Shown one piece after another: positions 2,203 through 63,024 of a stretch of 64,000 bases of DNA (position 1 is the stretch's first letter; each line of letters begins with the position of its first letter). Origin of the DNA: an uncultured virus (IMG/VR IMGVR_UViG_3300025459_000001). Its lineage: Duplodnaviria > Heunggongvirae > Uroviricota > Caudoviricetes. The stretch lies in the IMG/VR virus record IMGVR_UViG_3300025459_000001; one strand, written 5' to 3'. Position numbers and translations under genes: made by a program. Under the pieces are notes generated by a model. It made no database searches. It worked only from the letters and a program-made list of their open reading frames with translations, and was not told the origin of the DNA.

Positions 2203-2586
2203 GTGAGCGACGAGTCCCACGTTGTACCGATTAACCTAGCGTCCAAATCAGCCCACAATAAAGAAACCCGGCCTCTGTATAACGAAGAAGGTGAGCAGAT
2301 TGGGATGGCCACCTTGGAATGCGAGATAACCTACTCGCGGGTCATCCAAGCGGGGGAAGACACCTACCTCATGGTGGACGAAAAGAACTGGGATGTAGCG
2401 CGCGGACGGTTTCCCTGGAAGATGACCGCGCGCACCCTCCCTGTGACGGCTCGCAAGTTAGGAATGGCTATGGTGGCCAAAACGGATTACGCTGGCTATG
2501 TTCTGATTGAGATCGGCGAGCATATGTTCGTGGTTCCTGAACGGCACACGGAGGCGCTATGCAGGATGTACCCACAGAACCCATAA
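2203..2586 (+). CDS. hypothetical protein
   Basis: Overlapping start/stop within a + strand operon; protein-like composition. Confidence 0.5.
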   Translation: MSDESHVVPINLASKSAHNKETRPLYNEEGEQIGMATLECEITYSRVIQAGEDTYLMVDEKNWDVARGRFPWKMTARTLPVTARKLGMAMVAKTDYAGYVLIEIGEHMFVVPERHTEALCRMYPQNP

Positions 2587-2954
2587 CAATTAGATTCTTG
2601 GGGTTCGCATCGAAAAAGAACTTCTGGCGTCCCGGCAAAAACGGTAGAGGAATCTACCTCGACAAGAAGACTCGCGCCTTAGTCGAGCGTATGGAGCTTC
2701 AGGTGCCCGCTGAAGTTAGAGACTTGCGATTGGAAAGCCCTGACATGATCTGGACCTTCCGGTATACCAACGGTCACGCTGACCGCGATGGGATCATGGT
2801 CACAGTACTCGATATCCTACAGAAATATGGTGTGCTGGTCAACGATTCGATCACAAGGTGTAATGGTCTGTGGACGGTTCACCCGGCTGAACGTGGGGAG
2901 TACGATGAAGTTGAGGTGACACTGATACCGAGAGAGCCCCGTGTCCCACATTGA
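2559..2954 (+). CDS. RusA-like Holliday junction resolvase
   Basis: SKKN motif and DRDG...LDILQKYGVLVNDS resembling RusA DxDN...D.L...G...DD. Confidence 0.6.
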   Translation: MQDVPTEPITIRFLGFASKKNFWRPGKNGRGIYLDKKTRALVERMELQVPAEVRDLRLESPDMIWTFRYTNGHADRDGIMVTVLDILQKYGVLVNDSITRCNGLWTVHPAERGEYDEVEVTLIPREPRVPH

Positions 2955-3187
2955 GCACATCCGAGACAAGTTAGCTAATCTGGAGGTCCGCCAACTACTG
3001 CGGGACGCCTCACGCCGACAGGCTAGCATCTTAAGGAAAGCCTACCGTTTCCGCAAGCTGGGAAGATTCGACCACCTCTTACATTTACAATGTGGGATGA
3101 CCTTGTGCTACGACAGGGCAGGAAAGTTGTGTTGGGCAAGCGCACCCAGAATCACTCAGGATAACAATCAGCAGTGCGAGATGGAGT

Positions 3188-3373
3188 TCATCTCCGACTC
3201 CGACCCCGCTTTGCCTTCCGTTTCTTCACCACAGAGTTAGCCGCTCTTATGGCGGCACCCTCTGAGTACCCGCGTTCCAACATGCTGTTCGAAACGTGGC
3301 TCCATTGTCTCTGGGCCTTTCGGCTTTTCGCTTTTTTCGTGTGGCGCTTGGCATCACTTGGTTTCCAGGGCAT
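3188..3373 (-). CDS. small basic phage protein
   Basis: MPWKPSDAKRHTKKA...AIRAANSVVKK; RBS GGAGGA upstream; last gene of the minus-strand arm. Confidence 0.65.
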   Translation of the reverse strand: MPWKPSDAKRHTKKAKSRKAQRQWSHVSNSMLERGYSEGAAIRAANSVVKKRKAKRGRSRR

Positions 3374-3382
3374 AATATCCTC

Positions 3383-5308
3383 CTAATTGTGACCTGTTAG
3401 GGGCGGATTTTGGATTACGGTGCCGTTCAAAAACTTGGTCCACTTCCGAATTCCGGCCTTATTGCGCCCGAGTGGTTCTACTTCAATGCTCTTGATCTTG
3501 CCGCCGTATCGAGAAAGCATTTTAGAGACATTCGCTGGGGCTTGGTCTGAATCGTATTCGAGGGCACTGATCGTTTTCCCGCTGGCGTCTTTGGCTGTCA
3601 GTCGTATGCCCTCAAGGTTTACTTCGGTGGCCTTCTCGAATATAGATCGCACGGCTTGATGTAGTTCCTGTTGTTCTGACGTCTCGGGAGCGCTGGAGCC
3701 CTTCTGCGCCCCCTCAGTTTTCGGAGGGGCGGTCGCCGATTCGGGCGGAAGATTGGCTAGCGCTCCCGAATCCTTTTCACGTCCTTTTGGAGTCCCACGT
3801 TGTACTTCAGGTGGTGGGGAAGGCTTTTCTCCTGCCTTTAATTTCGCTTCCAGTTCCGCGATCCGCTTATTGTTAGCCGCAATCTTGTCCTCGGGGGATT
3901 CCTTTGCGACAACGGGTTCAGGAGGAAGGGAGGGCTTCCCTGCGGGTTCCCCCGTTTTTGGCATTTCCACCACATTCTGCTTGTGTGGAGGATTTTCCAG
4001 CACACCCATTTTCTCGGGACTCGGGACTGGCAAGACAGGCTCTTTCCCTTGGCTTGCCATGGCCTCCCTACGCACTCCAGAAACCTGAGAACGGCCTATG
4101 GATTCCGGGGTGGGCTCAGGTGGCGGGGCCGCAGTCGAAGCAGTGGCGGGCTTCTGTGGGCCAGCAGCGGGGGTTTCCTGGGAAACCGGGGTAGGAATAG
4201 ACTTCGGGGATGGCTTGGCGGGTGGTTTGGTCTCCTGTACTCGCTCAGGTGGCTTCGCTAAAGGCTTTCCCGCTGCTGGGGTCTTGGCTTGTCGAGCTTC
4301 AAACTTCTTCAGGGCGTCATCAAGAAGTCGTTGCTTTTCCGCTTCGGTGGCGTTGGCGACTTTGTCCCAGGCGGTTTGGGCGGGTGACAGCTTGGGAGAT
4401 TCAGTCTTGGCCTCTGGAGGGGGTGGGGCGGGCGGACCAACAGGACCTTCTGGCCCCTTCGGAGTTTCCACGGTGGGCTTCGCTTCGACTGGAGGCTTAC
4501 CGGCCTTACCGCCTTTGGTCGCTGCTGCAATTAGGGCTATGTCACCTAAAGCGCGAGCGGCCTGCTTTCCGACTTCACGGTAATTACCAGATTGGAGCGC
4601 ATCTGCCGCCTCTGGAAAAGACTGAATAAAGTCATAACTCTGTGCGCCGATAAAGCCAGTTTTTATCATTTTACCTAGAACGTTTATGGCTTTGGCCGCT
4701 CGCGGAAAATTGGCGAGTTTGGATTCCGGTAGCAGTATCGACCCAATAAGAAAGGCTGCGTTGAGCGGAGATGTCATACTGAGTCCGGTGTCGGCCAGTC
4801 CTTCACCTAACCCCGCCGAGAACTCCTGAACATTCTTAGGCGCTCCAGCTACTTTAGGGATTTCCTGGGCAGCCCAAGCGGCACCTTTCTCAACAGCAGG
4901 CTTGACGACTCCCTGTACTACCTCAGACGGCAGAAACGCCAGCCCTGGGAGTACGGAACCGCCGGTCAACTGGTTCTTGATTGCCGTGCCTACCTCGGAC
5001 AAGGAGGGAAAATGTGCTTTGCCGGATGGTTCAGGCGGACTCTCAGGCTTACCGTTGGCGGATTTCGGGGCACCGTCTGACGGCTCAAGGCCCTTGATAC
5101 TGTACAGGTTGTTAAACCCAGGAACGTGCCCTTGCATGTACTGGGCCCATTGTTGTGGGGTTATTTTACCCGGAGTCTCCTTAAGCATCTGCTTGGTGGC
5201 CTGCCGGTAGACGTCGTACTTCGGGTCACCCGATGTCACAGCCTGTTTCATCTTAGTCGCGAACTCTTCTGCGGTGACTTCGCGAGGTTTCTGGGGCTGA
5301 GGGGTCAT
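3383..5308 (-). CDS. probable internal virion/DNA ejection protein, Pro/Lys/Glu-rich
   Basis: 641 aa; position after the tail nozzle gene in a podovirus-like order; low complexity. Confidence 0.5.
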   Translation of the reverse strand: MTPQPQKPREVTAEEFATKMKQAVTSGDPKYDVYRQATKQMLKETPGKITPQQWAQYMQGHVPGFNNLYSIKGLEPSDGAPKSANGKPESPPEPSGKAHFPSLSEVGTAIKNQLTGGSVLPGLAFLPSEVVQGVVKPAVEKGAAWAAQEIPKVAGAPKNVQEFSAGLGEGLADTGLSMTSPLNAAFLIGSILLPESKLANFPRAAKAINVLGKMIKTGFIGAQSYDFIQSFPEAADALQSGNYREVGKQAARALGDIALIAAATKGGKAGKPPVEAKPTVETPKGPEGPVGPPAPPPPEAKTESPKLSPAQTAWDKVANATEAEKQRLLDDALKKFEARQAKTPAAGKPLAKPPERVQETKPPAKPSPKSIPTPVSQETPAAGPQKPATASTAAPPPEPTPESIGRSQVSGVRREAMASQGKEPVLPVPSPEKMGVLENPPHKQNVVEMPKTGEPAGKPSLPPEPVVAKESPEDKIAANNKRIAELEAKLKAGEKPSPPPEVQRGTPKGREKDSGALANLPPESATAPPKTEGAQKGSSAPETSEQQELHQAVRSIFEKATEVNLEGIRLTAKDASGKTISALEYDSDQAPANVSKMLSRYGGKIKSIEVEPLGRNKAGIRKWTKFLNGTVIQNPPLTGHN

Positions 5309-8300
5309 TTCTTCACCACATTCCCAAAGGCATCGTATTCAACTTGAGAGCCAGCAACTTGCCTCTGCTTTTTTCGTTTATCCGAACGGTATCCCCGAAT
5401 CACCGAGCGCGGATCAACCTTATTTATCGCAGCCGCTGCCAACACTTCCGAGGCCATATCCCAGTTATTTAGGTCGGCAGCGTTGCCGTATTCCTTAATG
5501 GCGGTAGTCAGACTCATCCCCCTACGTGTCGGGAAGCCGAATAACTGGGAACTGGCCGTGGGGGCCGCAATGGTTTCAGGGAACAACTTGTGGGCTCCCT
5601 TCTGGATTACTCCACGAGCAACCAAAGGGATTCCCAATGCCTCCGCGCTCGCATAGAGACGCTGTGTGGCCTGTTCTCCGCCGCTTGCTCGTGGGTTGAT
5701 TTCTTCGAAACCGCTGCCCGGTTCGTGATAACCAAGTTGTACGATACTCCAGCGAAGCGGCAGGGATAACTTGTTACCCAGTGTCTCAATTGGCGACATC
5801 AGCCAACCCATTGGCTCACGAAACCCCTTGCCTAATTCGAGATAACGCTGCGAGCCATCTGGATTATAACCGACAGATACATTAAAGGCATTTGTGGTGA
5901 GACTGTCGAGGTATTGATCTCCTACACGAGCGGGGGGGCCTGGGTTGTCCCAAGAAAAATGTGCTCCTTTTTTACCGCTGCGATCTTCCGTTTTAAAATA
6001 TCCACTTAAGGCGTAGTTGAGTGCTTGCGTCGTCAGAAACCAGGATAATGCCGCTCCCGTCACGTATTTGCTTGTAATTCGAGAAGCCGCTTCGTTCTCG
6101 AACCCACTGGTTAGCACGCGAAGCCTCGATACTGACCAGCCAGGAGCAAGCATAAGGAAGTTCAACGCCTGTCTCGCCCGTGGACTAATGAGCATTTTCT
6201 CCCAACTGACGGCCCCGTAGGCGTTATTTACATGATTGGCAACGGTGCGCCCCAGGTCGTCGATTCGTTCTGGTGTTGCATCCTTGCCTAACTTTGGGAG
6301 TTCATCGGCCATGATGGTTTCATAAGCATCCAGCATCGTTCCTTGGTGATAGTAGTCCCAAAGAGCGCTATCCCATGAGGACATCAACGATGCCATCGTT
6401 CTGACAGGACCACCGGAGACCTTGGCAAAAATGTTATTACTGGCCGTCATGTCTCTCAGCCGGTCAATCAGCCATCCCTCACGTTCTTCGCTGTTCAGGT
6501 TAAGGCCACGCCCTAATGCCTCGCGCACAATTGAAGGGTCCATGCGCATCACTGGGGGGCGATCACCTGATCGACCAATGGCTTCGTAGACGCCAGACTT
6601 CACCCCACTAAAGAAGTGCGGATTAAATAAAAAGGTTTGCCGCAAGGCATCTCCAGCACGAACTCCTTTTGGCGTCTTGCCGATCCCCGGCAGCGGCTTA
6701 CGGAGAGCGTAGATCGCCCGACCCTGTTCACTCAGCGTGTTGTAGTGGAACATCGAGAAAGTGAATATCGCTCGCTTTCCGAGGGCTCGCATCGTGTCCA
6801 GGGCTCCGAACAGGGTCGTCTTACCGGATTCTCCTATTGTCGGTAGGCCGTGACCGAATACAGAGTTTACTGCCATGTCGAAGTCTGGGTGGACATAAAC
6901 GGGACGGCGCTCAAAGTACGGCATGTGTTCTTTGGTGGTAGTGCCAGCGTAAGTCACGCGGTAAAGAGCCTCGGCATCCGTTGCCCGCTTCCATCCATTT
7001 AGGCCAAGGTCCTTTGCTTCCGTTTCAGTGACAATTGTTCCCATGCTACGGAGCCAATTCGCCATCCTAACGTTCGCAATCACCTGAGTTGCGGTATCCG
7101 CACGAAGTTTTAAGACATCTGCGACGTCGGTATATTTAGGTTTTAACCCGTACTCCTCGATTCCTGTTTTGTACCCTGGAATCTTACGCTCCTTAAGATA
7201 GGGGTCGTGCATCAGCGTGCGAGACACCCCGGCGCGAAATGCGGGGTCGCGTCCCTTAAAGTCCCACATCTGGGTCAGATACGCCTCGGATTCCTGGAGA
7301 GACACTGAGTCTCCCCACGCGGCGCGCAGTAAATCGTCCTGCTCTTTAGTCCACTTACGAAGTTCTGGCAACCATTGCCGCGCTTCCTTTGAAAGGCCGA
7401 CTTCATCTGCTGTTGCATCGCCCTGTATGACGTATCCTAACTTTCGAATATCCCTATCGGCAACTGGAACCTCTGCTTTAAAATCGTAGAGGAAGCTGTT
7501 GATGTCAAAGTTTCTTATGGCTTTAAAGGCTGCTCTGTCAGCGACAATGTCAGCCGATATTTGCAAAAGCTTAGGTTTCGGCACGTCGAATACATCCGCT
7601 ATGTCCCTGGCACCTTGGTGTTCGTAAAGTTTTTGGAGTCCCTTTGACGGCGCTTCAGCTTTGGCTTTTTCGAGCATCGGAATCTTAGCTTCGTCGGGAG
7701 CCTGAGCGATCTGCTTCCGCAGGGCCGATCTTTCCTCTAAGGGAACGAGGCGATACCCAGCGGTCCTAGCGACTAGGGTTTTAGCCCCCGCCTTAGCCGC
7801 TCCTAGCGACGTGACAATATCAGCAATCGCATCGGCCCAATCCTCAGGCGAGCCACTCTTGAAAGCCTTGGTTGATTTAGGGGCGGCCTGCATCAACCCC
7901 CCGAAACCAATTCCGAGGTCTACAATACCAGCTACCGGCGCAGTAGCAGGGAATAAATGCGCTGCCGTCAGGGCCAAGCCCACCGGAGAGGTGACGAAAT
8001 CCACAACCTCAGGAGGGGCCTTGCCGAGTTCGACAGCAAAGCGAGACATCCAGTCAGCACCCTTGGATCTCTGGATGGAACGAGGGAGTATGGTTTTTGC
8101 CAGCTTGTCGTAGGCTTCTGTGACCGTTGTTCCTTTCCCAAAGTACTTTAATAGAGATGTCGTCGCTATGTTCCCCTTTGGGGCGTTGGGTTGCGGTGCG
8201 GCTTCTTGTTTGGGTGCCGATTCGAAGATATCCGGCAACGATGGAGTAACTGTCTTGTTTTCGGCAGACGAACGAGGAGGAGGGCTCGGCGGAAGGCTCG

Positions 8301-43033: not shown

Positions 43034-44503
43034 TCAGAAAAGCGTCGAGGCGAGTTTGAAACAGGTCCGGGGGCTTGGCACCATTAGATTTGAGCCGCTA
43101 AGGAACTGGCCGCTCACATCGATCGAGTTGTTCACGCCCTTGAATCCGGTAAACCCGAATTGAAACAGGTCTACCTGGGAGAAGTACCACTCCACGTAGG
43201 CCGTGTTCAATCCGAACATCTTGCCGATCGGCGAGCTACCCGAAGGAAGATACCGCGAAATGACCACATCGGCGGCATTGAACCTGAAGTTCTGGAATCC
43301 CACGTTGGCCAGATCGTTGTCTTTATTCTCATACCGCATTGCAGGCTGCGTGCCCTGCCAGATCAAGTTCCAGCCGTTCTGTGTGACCACTATCAGGTCC
43401 GGGTGATCCGAGCCCCAACAGGCGTTTCCATAGGCCGTGTTGAGTTGTGCCAAGGTGAACGTGGTCACCGTGGCCTGATAGGCATTCAGCCCGCCAACGG
43501 TGCCAGTCGTCAAACCATTGATATCGGTTCGGTTCTGGCCGCCGACTTGGGAGTAATTTGTTCCGTCGTCGATCCACTCATCAAATCCGTTCAGGTATTT
43601 AGCCCGCGCACCCTGCCCGTTCTGGTACATATTGACGGCCAGGATCTTCGCCATCTTCAATGAGGCGTTGAGGAACTTCATCTCTACCTGATTGAAAATC
43701 GCCTCTTGGCCATCGTCGTTCATCGCGTCCCATCCGTATAGCGTGATGTTTACCCACGCTACCTTCAGGTCCACCGTGATCGCCGCGTCGGTCGTAACGA
43801 AGTTGATGTCCATCGTTTCGCCCTTGCCCATAAAATCGCCGAGGAGTTCCCCAACAATCACGGGCCTCCTTACGCGGCTGTTGCCCGCGAATCGTTCTGC
43901 TCTCTGCTGACTGAGCCTAGTAAATGCAGGATCTGCACCGTAGATGATCGTTCGTGTTGCGACCGGGTTCGCTATTCCCGGCCTTCTCACACTTTCATGT
44001 GAGACCAGACCATATCATCACCCCGAAGGGTGCCGCGCGCTTCCGAGCACTTGCCCGTACTCCCCGAAGGGATGGCCGTTGAACGTTCCCATTTCTGGGC
44101 TTCGCTGCTGATTACCCCGAAGGGCTTCCCAGCAATTCACGCGGTTTTCGAGGCGGCTTTCACCGCCAAGGGACTATCAGTTAATCCGTTGTCTTCTCTA
44201 CGATGTAATCGTACACATCCTTGATGTTGCGACCGGGTTCGCTATTCCCGGCCTTCTGCAAGTTTCCCAGCAGAGCAGATCATCTCATCGGCCCGCTTCG
44301 GGTCGCCTCGCGCTTCGGGCCGCTTGGCCCTACTCCCTCTCGGGATGATCGTTGAACCTTCCGACTCTCGTCGGCTTGGCTGCTGATTGCCTTGCCCGCC
44401 AATTCGGGTTTAGGTGTCCCAGCAATTCACGAGGTTTGCATAACCGATCTCTCGGCTAAGGCCCTATGTCTAAGGCGTCCAGCTCCGTTAGCTGCAAGGC
44501 CAT
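43034..44503 (-). CDS. major capsid protein, spliced: join(44473-44503, 44184-44218, 43034-43948), 326 aa
   Basis: RBS AGGAGG (44512-44517). Spliced N-terminus MALQLTELDAYVYDYIVEKTTDIIYGADPAFTRL is in frame. Capsid-like motifs LNGFDEWID, VGGQNR, PDLIV, GFQNFRFN. Lies between scaffold and decoration genes. Confidence 0.85.
43949..44183 (-). ncRNA. group I intron 2 (235 nt, IA2-like, no ORF)
   Basis: P1 GGAU/UA..UAGUCC with U.G at the splice site. P GAATTGCTGGGA, Q AATCAGCAG, R GTTCAACGGCCAT, S GATATGGTC. P3 CCGCG/CGCGG, P7.1/P7.2, terminal G, P10 UGAU/AUCA. Confidence 0.92.
44219..44472 (-). ncRNA. group I intron 1 (254 nt, IA2-like, no ORF)
   Basis: P1 GCCU/UA-GACA-UAGGGC with U.G. P GAATTGCTGGGA, Q AATCAGCAG, R GTTCAACGATCAT, S GAGATGATC. 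P3 CCTCG/CGAGG, terminal G, P10 ACAU/AUGU. Confidence 0.92.
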
Positions 44504-44523
44504 TCTACGTACCTCCTATTTCA

Positions 44524-47645: not shown

Positions 47646-49514
47646 CTATACGGGTGAGCCCTGTCGCTGACTTCTCGTTTGACGCGGCGTTCTTCCTGCA
47701 CCCTTCGGCCCTCCACCAATACCCGCCTCGTGTTCTTTCTGCATTTCCTGTATGACAAGGTCTGCGTTCTCCGGGAATTCCGCTTGCCGATAAAGACCGT
47801 GAAGTGACAGAGCGCCCATCTTGAAATACGTGGCCGCCCTCACCTCCTTCTGCATTCTACTCGTTCCGTGAGTCGATCCAGGAGCGATCTTCATACTGAA
47901 TGCCCGCCAGAAATCCTCCTTCGGTGCCGAGGAAGGAACCATGGTCCCAGCGTCGTAATCGAAGTCTTCCGGCGTCATCCCGTCTGCCCCCAGCACTCTC
48001 ATACGTCCGCTTAAAGTGGCGTACTGGAAGACGTTCGATACCATCTGTGACCCAGCTTCTTCTAATGCGATCTCAAGGTAGCGGCTTTCCAATTGGAATG
48101 GACCGCTCAACGTCTCCCTCATCTGTTCGATGGCTTCACCTCCCGGCACTTGCTTTTTCTTGGCGATGCCGGAGATGTCCAATGATCCAGAACGTTTCTT
48201 GATCGTCTCGACGAGATACCGGAGAAACTCTCCGATGTACGGAGGCAGATTCGGCGGGTCCATGTAGCGGAAGTCACCGGGTTGGGCGATTGGGTTCATC
48301 AGAATTTTTTGCGCCGGTTTAGCGGGTTGGAAGGCATCCCACACCACTTCGGCCATCGCACCACGCTTGCCCACTACGTTCAGGTTCAACGCTCTCTTTA
48401 CGGCTTCCTCTACTCCGGCACCGATGCTATTCGTGGCTTGGCACTGTGGGATCAATCTTCGGTACTTCGAGATTCCACCGGGGCTCCACACGCAGGGATT
48501 CAACTGAAGCATCGTGAAAGGATACAGTCCGTGCCAGAAGGGGCTTGGACCGTCGTACATGATCCGATCCCCGGCGAAAATCACCAGCCTCTTACGCGGG
48601 AATAATCTTGCTCCTGGGGGCACAAGATAGTGGTAATTGTACTGACTGGGATGAAGGTCCTGATTCTGAACGAACACTTCATTGCCAGATTCATTGATCG
48701 ACCAATCGTCGAAATAGACCTCCTTCAACTCGATCACTGGGAACGGTACGTAGGTCCCTTCGGATTCTCGAACTGGACCGCCGCGCTGCGACATCTTGTG
48801 CTTCATGGCGGGACTCATCGCATTCCACGTGTACTCAGGCACGCTAGAAGGTCGAACGTACTTGTCCTGAGAAAGTGACCGGCTCAGGTTGACCGTGTAC
48901 TTTTCCAGCCCTTGGCATTTCTCTTTGCCGAACTTGGCGTAGAAGTACGGGAGTGGTTTGTAGTTCTGATAGATGACCGCTGCCGATTCCTGTATCTTTC
49001 CGTTACAGAGAACCGGAATCACCTGATCGGCCCCGTGCGCTGAAAACTGGAATTGGTTTTCTCCGGCTACGTGCTTCAGGAATCCTGTCCCAAATAGCGC
49101 ATGGTCCAGCCACTCCACCACAATCGCATCCAGGTTCATGTTGAACCACAGCGACCGGATGTACTTGTGAACCGTCTCGGCTTGCTTTTTGTACGCCTCG
49201 ACCGATGACGTGATGTCGATAGTAGGGCGGATCTGACTCAATGACGACAGGGCTTCTAAACGCATATCACCCATGTAATCGTCATAGTACTTTGACCTGT
49301 AGTCTGGACGTGTCGAGGGATACCAGTTGCCGTCCAAGTAGTCCAGGATTCTTTCGATCTCTTGCAGGTCCCGCCAAGAGCGCATTTCCTCCATCCCCTG
49401 GCGGAGAAGGGCGTCGCGCCAACCTAGAAGTTTTCTAGAGTATTGGTCAGGGAAATCGCGCGAGCCAGAATTGCGTTCGACGGATGCGCGAGGAACGATC
49501 GCTAACGAAGCCAT
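47646..49514 (-). CDS. portal protein
   Basis: 622 aa; HALFGTGFLK, YDGPSPFWHGLYPF, SG..DISG; position between terminase and scaffold. Confidence 0.85.
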   Translation of the reverse strand: MASLAIVPRASVERNSGSRDFPDQYSRKLLGWRDALLRQGMEEMRSWRDLQEIERILDYLDGNWYPSTRPDYRSKYYDDYMGDMRLEALSSLSQIRPTIDITSSVEAYKKQAETVHKYIRSLWFNMNLDAIVVEWLDHALFGTGFLKHVAGENQFQFSAHGADQVIPVLCNGKIQESAAVIYQNYKPLPYFYAKFGKEKCQGLEKYTVNLSRSLSQDKYVRPSSVPEYTWNAMSPAMKHKMSQRGGPVRESEGTYVPFPVIELKEVYFDDWSINESGNEVFVQNQDLHPSQYNYHYLVPPGARLFPRKRLVIFAGDRIMYDGPSPFWHGLYPFTMLQLNPCVWSPGGISKYRRLIPQCQATNSIGAGVEEAVKRALNLNVVGKRGAMAEVVWDAFQPAKPAQKILMNPIAQPGDFRYMDPPNLPPYIGEFLRYLVETIKKRSGSLDISGIAKKKQVPGGEAIEQMRETLSGPFQLESRYLEIALEEAGSQMVSNVFQYATLSGRMRVLGADGMTPEDFDYDAGTMVPSSAPKEDFWRAFSMKIAPGSTHGTSRMQKEVRAATYFKMGALSLHGLYRQAEFPENADLVIQEMQKEHEAGIGGGPKGAGRTPRQTRSQRQGSPV

Positions 49515-49650: not shown

Positions 49651-49788
49651 AGAGGAGCCTCCTGCGCTTATCCTAAGCTATTTCTTTGGATTCGGCAACG
49701 TTACCTACACTGTTCAGCCTACATCAAGTCCCACGTTGGGCCCATGTTCGCTTAAGGAGCATTCCATAATCTACCACCAAATGGCTAA

Positions 49789-50340
49789 TCACGGTTTGCG
49801 CCACGTCAAACCGGCGTGCGAGCGGCGGATGGCGCGGGCCAGCGCGGAGATCACTTTCTCGCTGAATTCCGACAGTAGGGAGCTTTCCTTGGGCCGGGTG
49901 GGAGCTTTCTCGCTCTGCGAACGTTGCAATTCTTCGCGGATGGTGGCAAGGCGCAGGCCGCGCTCATGCAGGATTCCGGCGGCGAAACACTTCTCCTCGC
50001 GCAGCAGGCCGAGCAGCAGGTGCTCGGTGCCGATGTGCTTGTGGTTGAGGCGCTCGACTTCCTCGGCCCCGTAAGCGAGCACGCGCTTGCATTCGTGGCT
50101 GAGTGGCAGCTCGACGGAAGTGGAGACCTTTTCCCGGGGCGCGGTATGCCCCTCGATCTGTTTGCGGATCGATTCCACCGCGCTGTCCGAGCGCAGAAAG
50201 CGGTTCGCCAGCGCCTTGTCCTCGCGCAGCAGGCCCAGCAGCAGATGCTCCGTCTCGATATAGGGACTGCCGAACTTCCTGGACTCATAGCGGGCGACGA
50301 AGATCACCCGCCTCGCTTTTTCCGTGTATCGCTCAAACAT
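49789..50340 (-). CDS. ClpC N-terminal-domain mini-protein (host-derived, internally deleted)
   Basis: MFERYTEKARRVIF, two TEHLLLGLLRE repeats, then EKVISALARAIRRSHAGL; no Walker motifs. Confidence 0.85.
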   Translation of the reverse strand: MFERYTEKARRVIFVARYESRKFGSPYIETEHLLLGLLREDKALANRFLRSDSAVESIRKQIEGHTAPREKVSTSVELPLSHECKRVLAYGAEEVERLNHKHIGTEHLLLGLLREEKCFAAGILHERGLRLATIREELQRSQSEKAPTRPKESSLLSEFSEKVISALARAIRRSHAGLTWRKP

Positions 50341-50378
50341 AGGATTTGCGAAGCCCCCGGTAGATCGTTTCACTGTCG

Positions 50379-51242
50379 TCAGGATACATCATTATCGACG
50401 TTTGGTTCTGGCTTTGCGGGGATGTCCTCTTCGAGAAAATCTTCAGCAAAGGTGATCTTTGGAATTTTGTATGGTCGCAATTTATTTTCGAAATACTTAA
50501 AGCCTTTATCGCTGATGCTGTACTTTTGGGCACCGCCAACAATAATGTCAACGCTAGTTCCGGTTCCAACATCACGACTCCGCTCCGCCGCAAACTTGGC
50601 GCGTAGTAGTTCATAAATGCAGGCCCCAAGCGTTATAGTGTCGGGATCGTACATCTCATTCTGACAAAGAAACGCCTGAGCAATGTCTGACCCAGTGCCG
50701 ATTGTTGAATAGTCGTTTTCCCAATGTACTTCGCCGGAAAGATCAACACGAACGATCTGTCCGTATTGTTCCGCATCGAATAACGCAATCAACAACTCTG
50801 CGCCAAGGTTCAAATGGCGTATCTCGTGCCACACATCGTCGTAGTGAGATTCTCGGAGCCATTCCCGCCCGTGTTTAGAGAATTCCTCAAAGTCCATGTT
50901 AAGGGTCATACTAACGAAGTGATTTACTAATTTACGCTTCACATTGCGGCACGCCGCTCTCAATCCCTCAAGTAAGGCGTCGATATGCAAATCGGTATCT
51001 GCCGGATTAGACTCTCGCATGTATCCACGTATCGCTGGATCACAAGCGTTAAGTAATTGATCGGCGCGTGTCGGTTGTCCAGAAATCAAGATCGAGCAGT
51101 GCGATTCTCCTTCTTCGATTTCTCGTAGCTTGTCTGCATCGTCCGAAGTTATTAGCGTGCCTTTGTTAACCTGCCAGTCACGGCACAAAACTAGCGTTGA
51201 CTTTGCTTGGTAGGTGCAGGTTGCGGCAATACACAGCGTCAT
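50379..51242 (-). CDS. proteasome beta-subunit-like Ntn hydrolase (probable start MTLCIAA at 51242)
   Basis: N-terminal Thr, LVLCRD, conserved K, STIGTGSDIA, RDVG; RBS GAGGAG. Confidence 0.65.
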   Translation of the reverse strand: MTLCIAATCTYQAKSTLVLCRDWQVNKGTLITSDDADKLREIEEGESHCSILISGQPTRADQLLNACDPAIRGYMRESNPADTDLHIDALLEGLRAACRNVKRKLVNHFVSMTLNMDFEEFSKHGREWLRESHYDDVWHEIRHLNLGAELLIALFDAEQYGQIVRVDLSGEVHWENDYSTIGTGSDIAQAFLCQNEMYDPDTITLGACIYELLRAKFAAERSRDVGTGTSVDIIVGGAQKYSISDKGFKYFENKLRPYKIPKITFAEDFLEEDIPAKPEPNVDNDVS

Positions 51243-51310
51243 GGCCTCAGGCTCCTCTGTGTATTGATCCTCACAGATTTCCTGTGGGTGTGTCGAGTAT
51301 ATTTGTGCCG

Positions 51311-51769
51311 TCACGACGCCTCTTTGGCTTCGGCAACCTGTTGTTTCTTTTCGGCTTCCTTGAGGTCACGTAATGTGGCGGTAGCTTTCTGCAATTTCCT
51401 CCCATCTTCGGAGGCTTCACAATTGCTTGGGAGTTCGGATGGGAGGGCCACACCATTGCTGCGGCACCACTCTTTTTGCTGTTGGAAGGTTTCTATGTAG
51501 CGGGGCTTAGGTTTGCCGTCCGGGGTATTCCTGTCCCAGACCCAGTGGTGAAGGTCCTGGCGGTCGCCATCGTCTAGGGATCTGTCCACGTATTTCCGTC
51601 CCATATCTCCCATGAAGGGACTGGCGAACGAACTGGGTATCTTCTCCGTTCTTTCCCCGCACTCTTCGCAGGGCTCAGTCGGATCGTCCCAGTGTTTATA
51701 GAAGTGCTCCACAATCAGACCACGGTTGCCGCAGGTCTTGGAGACGCACACTGACTCAAAAACTGGCAC
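51311..51769 (-). CDS. FmdB-like zinc-ribbon protein
   Basis: MPVFESVC...C...CEECG...KIPS. Confidence 0.6.
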   Translation of the reverse strand: MPVFESVCVSKTCGNRGLIVEHFYKHWDDPTEPCEECGERTEKIPSSFASPFMGDMGRKYVDRSLDDGDRQDLHHWVWDRNTPDGKPKPRYIETFQQQKEWCRSNGVALPSELPSNCEASEDGRKLQKATATLRDLKEAEKKQQVAEAKEAS

Positions 51770-56474: not shown

Positions 56475-57266
56475 TCACTCTGGCAACGCCTGGACCATTT
56501 CGCGCACGTCGCGCATACTAACGCCAGCAGCCAAGAGGTCGCGCGTACTGACGCCAGCGGCCAAGAGGTAGCGCGCACTGACGCCAGCAGCCATGAGGTC
56601 GCGCGCACTGACGCCAGCAGCCAAGAGGTCGCGCGTACTGACGCCAGCGGCCAAGAGGTAGCGCGCACTGACGCCAGCGACCCAGAGGGCGCGCGCGATA
56701 ACGCCAGCAGCCACGAGGTCGCGCGCGATAACGCCAGCAGCCAAGAGGTCGCGCGCACTGACGCCAGCAGCCAAGAGGGCGCGCGTACTGACGCCAGCGG
56801 CCAAGAGGTAGCGCGCACTAAAGCCAGCGACCCAGAGGGCGCGCGCACTGACGCCAGCGACCCAGAGGTCGCGCGTACTGACGCCAGCGGCCAAGAGGTC
56901 GCGCGCACTGACGCCAGCAGCCAAGAGGTCGCGCGCGATAACGCCAGCAGCCAAGAGGTCGCGCGTACTAAAGCCAGCGGCCAAGAGGGCGCGCGCACTG
57001 ACGCCAGCGACCCAGAGGTCGCGCGCGATAACGCCAGCAGCCACGAGGTCGCGCGTACTAGCGCCAGCAGCCCAGAGGTTGCGCACATTAGCGCCAGCGG
57101 CCAAGAGGTCGCGCGTACTAACGCCAGCAGCCAAGAGGTCGCGCGCGATAACGCCAGCAGCCACGAGGTCGCGCGTACTAACGCCAGCAGCCCACTTTTC
57201 TTTGATGGCTGATATATCAGCTTCCAGTCGATCCAGTTCCTTCAATAACTCAGATTTCGTTTGCAT
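56475..57266 (-). CDS. decapeptide-repeat protein
   Basis: About 23 copies of xAAGVS(A/T)RDL; RBS AGGAGAG. Confidence 0.75.
   Translation of the reverse strand: MQTKSELLKELDRLEADISAIKEKWAAGVSTRDLVAAGVIARDLLAAGVSTRDLLAAGANVRNLWAAGASTRDLVAAGVIARDLWVAGVSARALLAAGFSTRDLLAAGVIARDLLAAGVSARDLLAAGVSTRDLWVAGVSARALWVAGFSARYLLAAGVSTRALLAAGVSARDLLAAGVIARDLVAAGVIARALWVAGVSARYLLAAGVSTRDLLAAGVSARDLMAAGVSARYLLAAGVSTRDLLAAGVSMRDVREMVQALPE
56505..57194. repeat. 30-nt tandem repeat array (about 23 units)
   Basis: Unit ACGCCAGCAGCCAAGAGGTCGCGCGYACTR with scattered variants. Confidence 0.95.
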
Positions 57267-58301: not shown

Positions 58302-58612
58302 GCTTCCTGGCGTCTCTTTCCTTGCAGAGCCTTGAAATTCAGCGCACCCACCTCCCCAGAAATTAGTCCGCCTCACTCCAAGGCTCTGCACGGCCCTCTA
58401 TCCGCTAGAGGGTTGCGTTTGTACTCCAACCGGCTGCGGTGTATTGTGTTTTAGACTGTCGGGTGTTTTCTCCTTTCTTACTGGTTCAGATTACTCGTCG
58501 TCGTTTGCGACATATTGGACAGGGTTGCAACGTTGTACGACATGGCCCCGACCGGAGCTTTCCCGTAGAAAACGGTGGCTCCACTAGTGGTCGTGGGGAA
58601 TAGACCGCCTTG

Positions 58613-58782
58613 CGTCTCGACGAGATACCGGAGAAACTCTCCGATGTACGGAGGCAGATTCGGCGGGTCCATGTAGCGGAAGTCACCGGGTTGGGCGATT
58701 GGGTTCATCAGAATTTTTTGCGCCGGTTTAGCGGGGTGTAAAGCATCCCACACCGCTTCGGCCACCACAGCACTCTTGCCCC
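58613..58782 (-). repeat. duplicated portal-gene segment
   Basis: 58613-58735 is identical to 48204-48326 (123 nt), with about 45 nt of diverged continuation. Confidence 0.95.
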
Positions 58783-58818
58783 AGGGGCTATCTTGCTCCA
58801 CCGCCTTCTGGACGGTGG

Positions 58819-61917: not shown

Positions 61918-63024
61918 TCAACTTGTAGCCCGCTGTTCTGAGGGGCATAGCCCCGCAAGGCTCATCCCGAGCCTTTTGATGTTTAGTGCCGCGTTGTGAT
62001 CCCGCCCCAAAGTCAACCCGCATGAACAGGAATGCACCCGCTCGCTAAGTTCCTTTCGGATGATGACACCACAGCCGCTGCACTTCTGAGATGTCCCCTT
62101 CGGGTTGACCGGCACCATCCACTTACCAGCGTATTCTGCTTTGTAAGTTACCTGCCAGATCAACAGCCCCCAGGCTGCATCCATGATTGACTTTGCTAAC
62201 TTGGATCGCACCATATTTCGGATCTTCAGATCCTCGTGAGCAATTAAATCGTAGTTCGCTACCAGCCACTTGCTGACGTGGTGGATGTAGTTCAACCGCG
62301 CACTTGCGGCCCGTTGATGAGCGCGGCGCAACGCCTCACGCGCACGGAGGCGGTTATGTGACCCGCGCGTCTTGGTTGCTAACGAGCGATTGGCGGAGGC
62401 GATCCGATTTTCGTGCTGACGTATCCAACGCGGATTCTCAATCTCGGTTCCGTCACTCAGTGTCGCCAGGGTAGTCAGGCCAACATCAATCCCTACCGGG
62501 TGCATTACCACGCACTTCTCTGGGGCGGGGCCGATATCACAGACTACGTTAGCCGTCCATCTCTTGCCATCACGCTTTACCGTGCAGTATTTTGCGCGGC
62601 CCCAAATAGGACGCCCACCACGCGCCCGAATATCCCCCACGTTCGGTATTTTGATCGAACGCTCGCGGACTACGGGCAAACTGAACCCGAAGGAATCGTA
62701 CCTGAAACGTGAACGATAACGCGGGAACCCCGGCTTCTCGCCAGCCTTGCAACGGCGGTAGAACGCCTTGAATGCCCGGTCAACCCGACGCAACGGGTCA
62801 CGCTGGATATCACAGGCGATCCACTGGAATGCCAGGTCTTTGCGGAGTTCCGTCAACTCCTTCTGCTGGTCATAGTACGTGATCGACTTGTGCTGGAGTT
62901 TCCATGCCTCTTTTCGCTCCTGAATACAGGCGTTCGCAGTCTCGCAGTTATCCTCAAGAATCCGATTCAACTCCGCAACCTGCGTAGCGTTTGGACGAAG
63001 ACGAAACTGAAAGGTTCTCAGCAT
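61918..63024 (-). CDS. tnpB: TnpB (solo, IS1341-like, no tnpA)
   Basis: FRLRP, KPGFPRYR, GIDVG, IAHEDL, TSQKCSGCG, CSCG, RDHNAALNI. Confidence 0.95.
   Translation of the reverse strand: MLRTFQFRLRPNATQVAELNRILEDNCETANACIQERKEAWKLQHKSITYYDQQKELTELRKDLAFQWIACDIQRDPLRRVDRAFKAFYRRCKAGEKPGFPRYRSRFRYDSFGFSLPVVRERSIKIPNVGDIRARGGRPIWGRAKYCTVKRDGKRWTANVVCDIGPAPEKCVVMHPVGIDVGLTTLATLSDGTEIENPRWIRQHENRIASANRSLATKTRGSHNRLRAREALRRAHQRAASARLNYIHHVSKWLVANYDLIAHEDLKIRNMVRSKLAKSIMDAAWGLLIWQVTYKAEYAGKWMVPVNPKGTSQKCSGCGVIIRKELSERVHSCSCGLTLGRDHNAALNIKRLGMSLAGLCPSEQRATS

Follow-up and report, generated by a model that had tools for sequence, protein, structure and literature searches.

A stand-alone ClpC N-terminal domain in an uncultured peat phage, almost certainly a recent capture from Bryobacterales clpC

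Mycobacterial ClpC2 (Rv2667) is described as a partial homologue of ClpC1 that is devoid of a motor, acts as a sponge for cyclomarin and has been proposed to compete with ClpC1 for its ligands (PMC10030653). A phage protein directed at the same type of machine is Gp53 of phage SPO1, reported to act on ClpC of Bacillus subtilis in an adaptor-like manner (PMC6873191). Here we analyse a window of 64,000 nucleotides (nt) from an uncultured tailed virus (IMG/VR record IMGVR_UViG_3300025459_000001), in which a gene of 183 codons, hereafter mini-ClpC, encodes a ClpC N-terminal domain severed from its motor. Almost certainly, a tailed phage of peat and wetland has recently captured some 550 nt of a clpC gene of Bryobacterales (Acidobacteriota), consisting of the leader, codons 1-160 and 18 codons of the second ATPase module (D2). 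More tentatively, we propose that the product could act as a free N-domain and compete for the ligands of host ClpC.

The open reading frame (ORF) of mini-ClpC is intact and begins with an ATG, the protein opening with MFERYTEKARR. A GTG located 33 nt further upstream, giving 194 amino acids (aa), is an unlikely start, as it adjoins the stop of the neighbouring gene. In a Pfam scan the protein matches Clp_N (PF02861) over two stretches with an E-value of 2.7e-20 (72.7 bits, for a cut-off of 20.7), and no AAA family was detected. With phmmer, residues 1-138 align with residues 1-138 of solved N-domains of ClpC and ClpC1 (6ucr, 9q5p, 3wdc and others) at E-values around 1e-25. The AlphaFold2 (AF2) model is poor, with a mean predicted local distance difference test (pLDDT) score of 48.8 and a shallow alignment; it gives no more than a hint that residues 153-175 form one helix. 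The gene stands out by composition, having 61-64% GC along its length, in contrast to 46-57% on either side. Compared with eight neighbouring genes, its GC is 63% against 47.6-56.2%, and its GC content at third codon positions (GC3) is 0.81 against 0.49-0.73; the GC3 of host clpC is 0.83.

A donor scan with one genome per species gave 80 loci, nearly all of them labelled Bryobacterales, Bryobacteraceae, Terriglobia or Acidobacteriota. The best match is the clpC gene of locus L006, from a Bryobacterales metagenome-assembled genome (MAG; G002), which encodes a ClpC of 825 aa. In pairwise blastn, window positions 50358..49861 align with L006 bases 2516-3013 at 89.2% identity over 498 nt, and positions 49860..49811 with bases 4049-4098 at 94% over 50 nt. 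As the two matches abut in the window but lie apart in the host, host bases 3014-4048 must have been lost: 1035 nt, or 345 codons, in frame. No clear microhomology is visible at the internal junction; L006 has there a 6-nt TCAGCC repeat, 3 nt out of register. On the other side, clpC homology runs out at about window position 49806-49811.

The deletion removes residues 161-505 of L006 ClpC, and with them the first ATPase module (D1), including its Walker A motif GEPGVGKT at residue 201, and the middle domain (M-domain), a UVR-type coiled coil whose motif lies at residue 424. The D2 module and the ClpP-docking part are absent as well: homology stops at host residue 523, short of the D2 Walker A (GPTGVGKT), which starts at 537, and the last 302 residues of the host protein have no counterpart. 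This architecture had been read from the letters alone in the original prediction, which described an intact double Clp_N head, a direct jump from ...LLSEFS to EKVISALARAIRRSHAGL, the in-frame loss of the first nucleotide-binding and middle domains, a second nucleotide-binding domain cut before its Walker A, and a GC3 above that of the neighbours. Each of these points is borne out by the Pfam and structural matches, the donor DNA or the composition of the gene, and the Acidobacteriota origin suggested at the time could be narrowed to Bryobacterales.

Further comparisons agree with this donor. In a tree of 66 sequences, the phage gene pairs with L006 clpC as its nearest neighbour, and their terminal branches measure 0.071 and 0.074 substitutions per site, respectively. 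The closest host proteins (P0155, P0156, P0158 and P0270), found in a collection of 5.8 billion proteins that returns protein only, are identical at 150-151 of 160 residues, and the named ones belong to Bryobacteraceae. A metagenome scan revealed no donor DNA nearer than 82.7% nucleotide identity, except for one further identical copy of the phage. The 161-505 deletion is present in no host genome examined. One locus (L161) that appeared to cover residues 1-183 proved to be an ordinary full-length clpC. Separately, a second clpC-like sequence on contig 162 of genome G002 (4987-7349) shares 88% identity with the phage N-domain and is divided among open frames of 557, 214 and 366 aa, which may reflect a broken paralogue, strain variation or contamination of the MAG.

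Table 1. Features of the mini-ClpC locus, in window coordinates.
Feature	Position	Strand	Basis
Mini-ClpC coding sequence, 183 aa and stop (P0001)	49789..50340	minus	ORF list, translation
ClpC N-terminal domain, residues 1-140, two Clp_N repeats	49921..50340	minus	Pfam, solved structures
Native linker between N-domain and D1, residues 141-160 (...QRSQSEKAPTRPKESSLLSEFS)	49861..49920	minus	same protein sequence as L006 ClpC to S160
Stub of 18 residues, E161-L178 (EKVISALARAIRRSHAGL), equal to host ClpC residues 506-523, helix before D2 Walker A	49807..49860	minus	50-nt match to L006
Five residues TWRKP with no clear clpC homology, then TGA stop	49789..49806	minus	pairwise view of 3' boundary
Host clpC leader, 18 nt, captured with the gene	50341..50358	minus	blastn match begins 18 nt before ATG
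Phage-specific joints: internal (peptide ...SEFSEKVISALAR) and 3' end	49860/49861; 49806	minus	
Proteasome/Anbu-like N-terminal nucleophile (Ntn) peptidase gene, 287 aa from internal ATG	50379..51242	minus	PF00227, E 3e-7
Accessory insertion, about 1.65 kb: peptidase gene, mini-ClpC and about 140 nt with no known source	49666..51310	minus	absent from relatives
Conserved ORF of 152 aa, upstream anchor	51311..51769	minus	weak zinc-ribbon match (TIGR02605, E 0.004)
Portal gene, downstream anchor	47646..49514	minus	phrog_156 portal, E 1.8e-6

The window belongs to an IMG/VR virus record of 65,989 bp, and the gene recurs in independent records. Five other contigs, four IMG/VR records with four metagenome identifiers and one JGI contig, are 100% identical to the window in DNA over 6.5-12.5 kb, and the exact mini-ClpC protein is recorded on 22 contigs. 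At least 83% of sampled words are held by 19 of 24 listed sequencing runs, all 19 being labelled peat or wetland; 9 may be the source. That phage and host reads were misjoined, leaving the gene in no real phage, is thus highly improbable. Such an error would be in line with the Logan contigs that are interrupted within the segment owing to its k-mers in common with host clpC, with two IMG/VR contigs that end 24-49 nt after the peptidase gene and with minor alleles resembling mosaics of phage and host. However, six contigs from different assemblies agree across both boundaries and the internal junction; Logan contigs from three DNA runs span 49806 and 50358 without differences, and one spans 49860/61; the deletion itself, as said above, comes from no host genome that we examined. 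The chimeric assembly considered in the original prediction is thereby set aside. Assemblies evidently stop short where phage and host have sequence in common: the two IMG/VR contigs in question (L088 and L090) belong to the same phage and finish at the start of the clpC-derived tract.

The surrounding region is typical of tailed-phage structural genes: besides the portal gene it has a terminase-like ORF of 748 aa, some very large ORFs and SU10-type adaptor domains. Both anchor genes listed in Table 1 are present in seven related loci, with identities of 77-83% for the portal and 56-57% for the 152-aa ORF, and in each of these loci 159-183 nt separate the homologue of the latter from the portal gene downstream. 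Neither mini-ClpC nor the peptidase has a match in any of the seven. DNA homology to these relatives drops out near window position 51345 and resumes at 49665, which, together with the short spacing of their anchors, identifies the intervening 1.65 kb or so as an insertion. Both inserted genes are co-oriented with the terminase and portal genes. A scan for promoters and terminators found nothing above chance, and PADLOC returned no matches. Neither did searches of IMG/VR with mini-ClpC, with a tandem double N-domain protein of the host phylum (P0002) or with the peptidase alignment find any diverged orthologue of mini-ClpC.

Elsewhere in the window, about 170 bp from inside the portal gene (48204-48372) are duplicated at 58613-58781 with 95% identity, 10 kb away, within an ORF of 107 aa (58478..58801). 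The duplication is another indication, besides the clpC capture, that DNA has been shuffled illegitimately in this genome. The phage also carries a TnpB-type gene on the minus strand (61918-63024; OrfB_IS605 and a Cas12f1-like TNB domain), two copies of a unit of about 200-220 nt at 73% identity (43947-44437, between ORFs ending at 43990 and starting at 44505), and, on the minus strand, an ORF at 56475-57266 that matches PF25296 'Decapeptide repeat region' (E 1e-52) and DUF7409.

Relative to the nearest host ClpCs, the dominant allele of mini-ClpC has nine substitutions: F15V, A20S, S21R, Q22K, H52D, A53S, D77E, A95V and E122G. Several of these sites differ between phyla, and in the alignment R21 is the residue found in Mycobacterium tuberculosis ClpC1. 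The 90% protein cluster, from which alleles of 15 of the 21 members were listed, contains at least six further alleles of 183 aa (among P0267-P0273), a length at which broken forms would not appear. All are identical over residues 134-183, with the same joint and tail, so that frame, junction and tail are preserved in each of the seven recorded alleles of this length. Compared with the dominant allele, the further ones show hardly any differences other than host residues at some of the nine sites. One has the host residue only at D77 and another only at E122; one is of host type across sites 15-22, and P0272 across sites 15-53. P0273 combines host residues at 15-22 and 53 with a serine, itself a host variant, at 52 and five more N-terminal differences, including H32Y. 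Finally, an allele carried by a contig of 105,040 bp is host-like at all nine sites. The series thus comprises alleles with 0, 3, 5, 8 or 9 of the phage-specific changes. At the protein level, this block-wise pattern would fit recombination with host clpC, or else assembly mosaics at shared k-mers; stepwise mutation does not fit it.

We now consider what the protein may do. Having no ATPase module, M-domain or ClpP-docking part, mini-ClpC cannot unfold or deliver a substrate; it can bind only the partners of the host N-domain. Our tentative proposal is that it competes for them. Co-transcribed with the late genes and produced as a free N-domain without a motor, it would titrate ligands such as ClpS, or substrates that dock to the N-domain, and host ClpCP proteolysis would be blunted or redirected during infection. 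The logic would be that of the mycobacterial ClpC2 sponge, and the tactic the opposite of that of SPO1 Gp53. The nine phage-specific substitutions might tune or narrow binding by the free domain, while the capture most likely left the D2 stub and the TWRKP tail as by-products. As to the ligands available, the L006 genome encodes ClpC, a ClpS homologue above the cut-off and three ClpB-like proteins; McsB and MecA were not found in this one incomplete MAG, nor was any ClpA above the cut-off, which leaves ClpS as the one known N-domain ligand in sight. The residues of the cyclomarin site in M. tuberculosis ClpC1 (F2, F80 and E89) are uninformative in this respect: only F2 is shared, and host and phage both have L80 and A89. 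In the original prediction the gene was taken for either a decoy or adaptor acting on ClpCP or a recently captured remnant. Recent capture is confirmed, and our data do not separate the decoy from the remnant. As a precedent, it had cited stand-alone mycobacterial ClpC2 and ClpC3 as decoys; the ClpC2 sponge stands as described in PMC10030653, while the name ClpC3 does not occur in that paper.

It is almost as likely that mini-ClpC is a neutral passenger, a very young clpC fragment brought in by illegitimate recombination, which owes its frame, its deletion and its stop to luck and whose protein, if made, is useless. A number of observations weigh against the competitor and are as expected of such a passenger. 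The gene is limited to one phage lineage and missing from all seven relatives, so that the uniqueness which had been named beforehand as a sign against function is essentially true; with one carrier lineage only, there is no diverged orthologue on which selection could be measured. Its GC3, still unameliorated and close to that of host clpC, points to a young capture, and a comparison of upstream regions shows the host leader alone before the ATG, with no Shine-Dalgarno motif of the phage type. At six of the nine substituted sites, no variation is seen among 65 full-length host ClpCs from genome loci or among 93 ClpC-type proteins from the protein search; these changes look like relaxed constraint. 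The invariant histidine of the TEH motif is altered in two minor alleles, by H32Y and H107L. The D2 stub and tail appear accidental, and the duplicated portal fragment is another stray piece of DNA in the same genome. RNA run X20, which holds a share of 0.09 of the sampled words, is uninformative as to mini-ClpC: the matching contigs are host clpC, with a loose end at 49861 that runs into host D1, and the sole phage cover is a contig of 227 nt at 50597-50700.

The rates of substitution bear on both explanations. Compared with L006, the phage gene shows 38 synonymous (Sd) and 12 non-synonymous (Nd) differences, giving dS 0.48, dN 0.0375 and a ratio dN/dS (omega) of 0.078, in contrast to a median of 0.010 and a maximum of 0.027 in five host-host pairs with dS of 0.2-0.7. 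This low overall value can be due wholly to host evolution before capture. With eight outgroups, 8-11 unique non-synonymous and 6-22 synonymous changes fall on the phage lineage, and 1 and 8-25, respectively, on that of L006 (Fisher P=0.012 for 10:14 versus 1:18). The excess indicates that the copy has left the constraint of a working ClpC, although neither pairwise dN/dS nor outgroup counts can split pre-capture host evolution from post-capture phage evolution. The substitutions are not more conservative than random missense changes (P of about 0.21 in a BLOSUM test), and the chance that 11 random changes bring no stop is about 0.55. In favour of a working protein, on the other hand, the nine substitutions are clustered, with three adjacent pairs (P=0.006 against random placement), and a hand count against the nearest host-like contigs in peat runs gives about 10 non-synonymous and 12 synonymous changes, below the neutral expectation of about 3:1 (binomial P=0.002), a test confounded by host divergence before capture. 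These are two hints against pure drift. Moreover, phage genomes are compact, and yet the frame is intact in the seven alleles and on the 22 contigs; the deletion takes exactly the motor and spares the whole docking domain with its linker; and N-domain genes without a motor are found repeatedly, both in other phages and within the host phylum. Neutral drift after capture is nonetheless compatible with the substitution data and is not rejected by them. The neutral evolution raised in the original prediction is therefore neither shown nor refuted by the dN/dS analysis that it called for.

The neighbouring gene offers a further explanation, which we regard as unlikely: that the two inserted genes form a proteolysis module, in which the N-domain would recruit ClpC ligands, or substrates bound to an adaptor, for the phage peptidase or would help the peptidase to assemble. 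The peptidase start adopted here is the internal ATG, as used by gene callers; the ORF list gives 311 aa from a GTG at 51314. Its family (n=22) keeps an invariant Met-Thr-Leu-Cys start, D22 and K38, followed by an acidic C-terminal tail. The AF2 model has a pLDDT of 80, and the top Foldseek matches are Anbu (5nyg and 5nyw) and 20S subunits; no PHROG matches the protein. Phage-borne proteasome homologues, named PPH and AAH, have been described (PMC8665760). Several features would suit a module: the genes lie side by side with a gap of 38 nt, point the same way and are both missing from all seven relatives; both products come from protein-degradation families; and the invariant Met-Thr start with Asp and Lys is that of active Ntn proteases. 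In addition, mini-ClpC weakly matches the double Clp-N proteins related to plant ClpT (4y0b and 4y0c; E 2e-4 and 6e-4), and in plants, N-domain proteins of the ClpT type work on the ClpP core. Against this, the strong contrast in GC3 between the peptidase gene (0.49) and mini-ClpC (0.81) shows that the two arrived separately, and the clpC-derived tract begins only 20 nt past the peptidase stop. No relative of the peptidase has a Clp_N neighbour that could be checked, the IMG/VR loci with the peptidase being all of this phage. Of the 401 Acidobacteriota genomes that were searched, 399 gave no match to the family, and the two that did matched weakly, at 28% identity, one being an unpublished genome (G051).

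An extension of both ideas, in our opinion improbable, is that a proteolysis-hijack module is in the process of forming. The docking head, retuned over a single patch of its surface at residues 15-22 and 52-53, would divert ClpS or other ligands from ClpCP or feed them to the Anbu-like peptidase, while still exchanging sequence with host clpC. Such continued exchange would explain the mosaic alleles.

Whichever explanation holds, the near-identical DNA links the phage, which is uncultured and abundant in peat, to the Bryobacterales as its host clade. The locus also records an early stage of capture, with the donor, the breakpoints on either side and the internal deletion all resolved to single bases, together with a series of alleles. 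The sharpness of this record and the naturally occurring alleles are what give the locus its value. An active free N-domain would be the phage equivalent of the ClpC2 sponge and, after SPO1 Gp53, a second route against ClpCP, for which natural variants are at hand. If the domain is idle, it provides a clean example of how accessory genes begin. The hijack module, if true, would be a dated, stepwise natural case in which part of a host machine is made by a phage into a weapon against it.

Among known proteins, the donor ClpC of Bryobacterales is by far the closest to mini-ClpC: with it the phage protein has in common 150-151 of 160 residues of N-domain and linker, 89% of the DNA, the leader and the 506-523 stub, and from it differs by the nine substitutions and the absence of D1, the M-domain and D2 past its first helix. 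ClpC2 is likewise motor-less with a ClpC-type N-domain (9p2p and 8ad9 match at E 6e-13 and 1e-12). However, ClpC2 is reported in PMC10030653 to have an extra N-terminal domain for dimerisation and promoter binding, whereas mini-ClpC opens directly with the N-domain (MFERY); and while ClpC2 is an old cellular paralogue, mini-ClpC is a very recent derivative of host clpC that ends in a D2 stub. Gp53 and mini-ClpC are both phage products, the former aimed at host ClpCP, with no sequence relation between them: Gp53 binds ClpC in the fashion of an adaptor, and mini-ClpC is a copy of the receptor itself. The plant proteins ClpT1 and ClpT2 share the stand-alone double Clp-N fold and are distant in sequence.

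The host phylum has motor-less paralogues of its own. Many Acidobacteriota proteins of 300-320 aa (P0002-P0017) carry a complete ClpC-type N-domain twice in tandem, with 58-82% identity to the phage version; with P0002 as the query, no such protein was found in IMG/VR viral contigs. Genome G002 encodes on its contig 22 (L198:919-1932) a protein of 337 aa in which a ClpC N-domain, 80% identical to that of the phage, is joined to a UVR/M-domain motif and an unrelated C-terminus, without ATPase. The host clade thus retains N-domains without a motor. In contrast to mini-ClpC, these paralogues are cellular and have other architectures, none with the 161-505 junction or the D2 stub.

Phages, too, have proteins consisting of the N-domain only and, like mini-ClpC, devoid of a motor. 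The family phrog_35667 matches mini-ClpC residues 1-142 (E 3.7e-24) with positions 11-152 of its 235-position profile, the last 80 or so being unmatched; further cases are gp251 of mycobacteriophage Myrna (235 aa), Phabba, and a Clp_N frame of 220 aa in LR756511.1, a 595-kb uncultured phage. Three of five phage-collection matches that we checked were dropped as precedents, being full-length ClpC-like ORFs in UNVERIFIED records. Literature searches found no functional study of the phage N-domain-only genes. With an identity to mini-ClpC of just 29-39%, these proteins represent independent and older acquisitions, in other host phyla. Altogether, motor-less ClpC N-domain proteins are already known, in phages as well as in cells, and mini-ClpC adds another to them.

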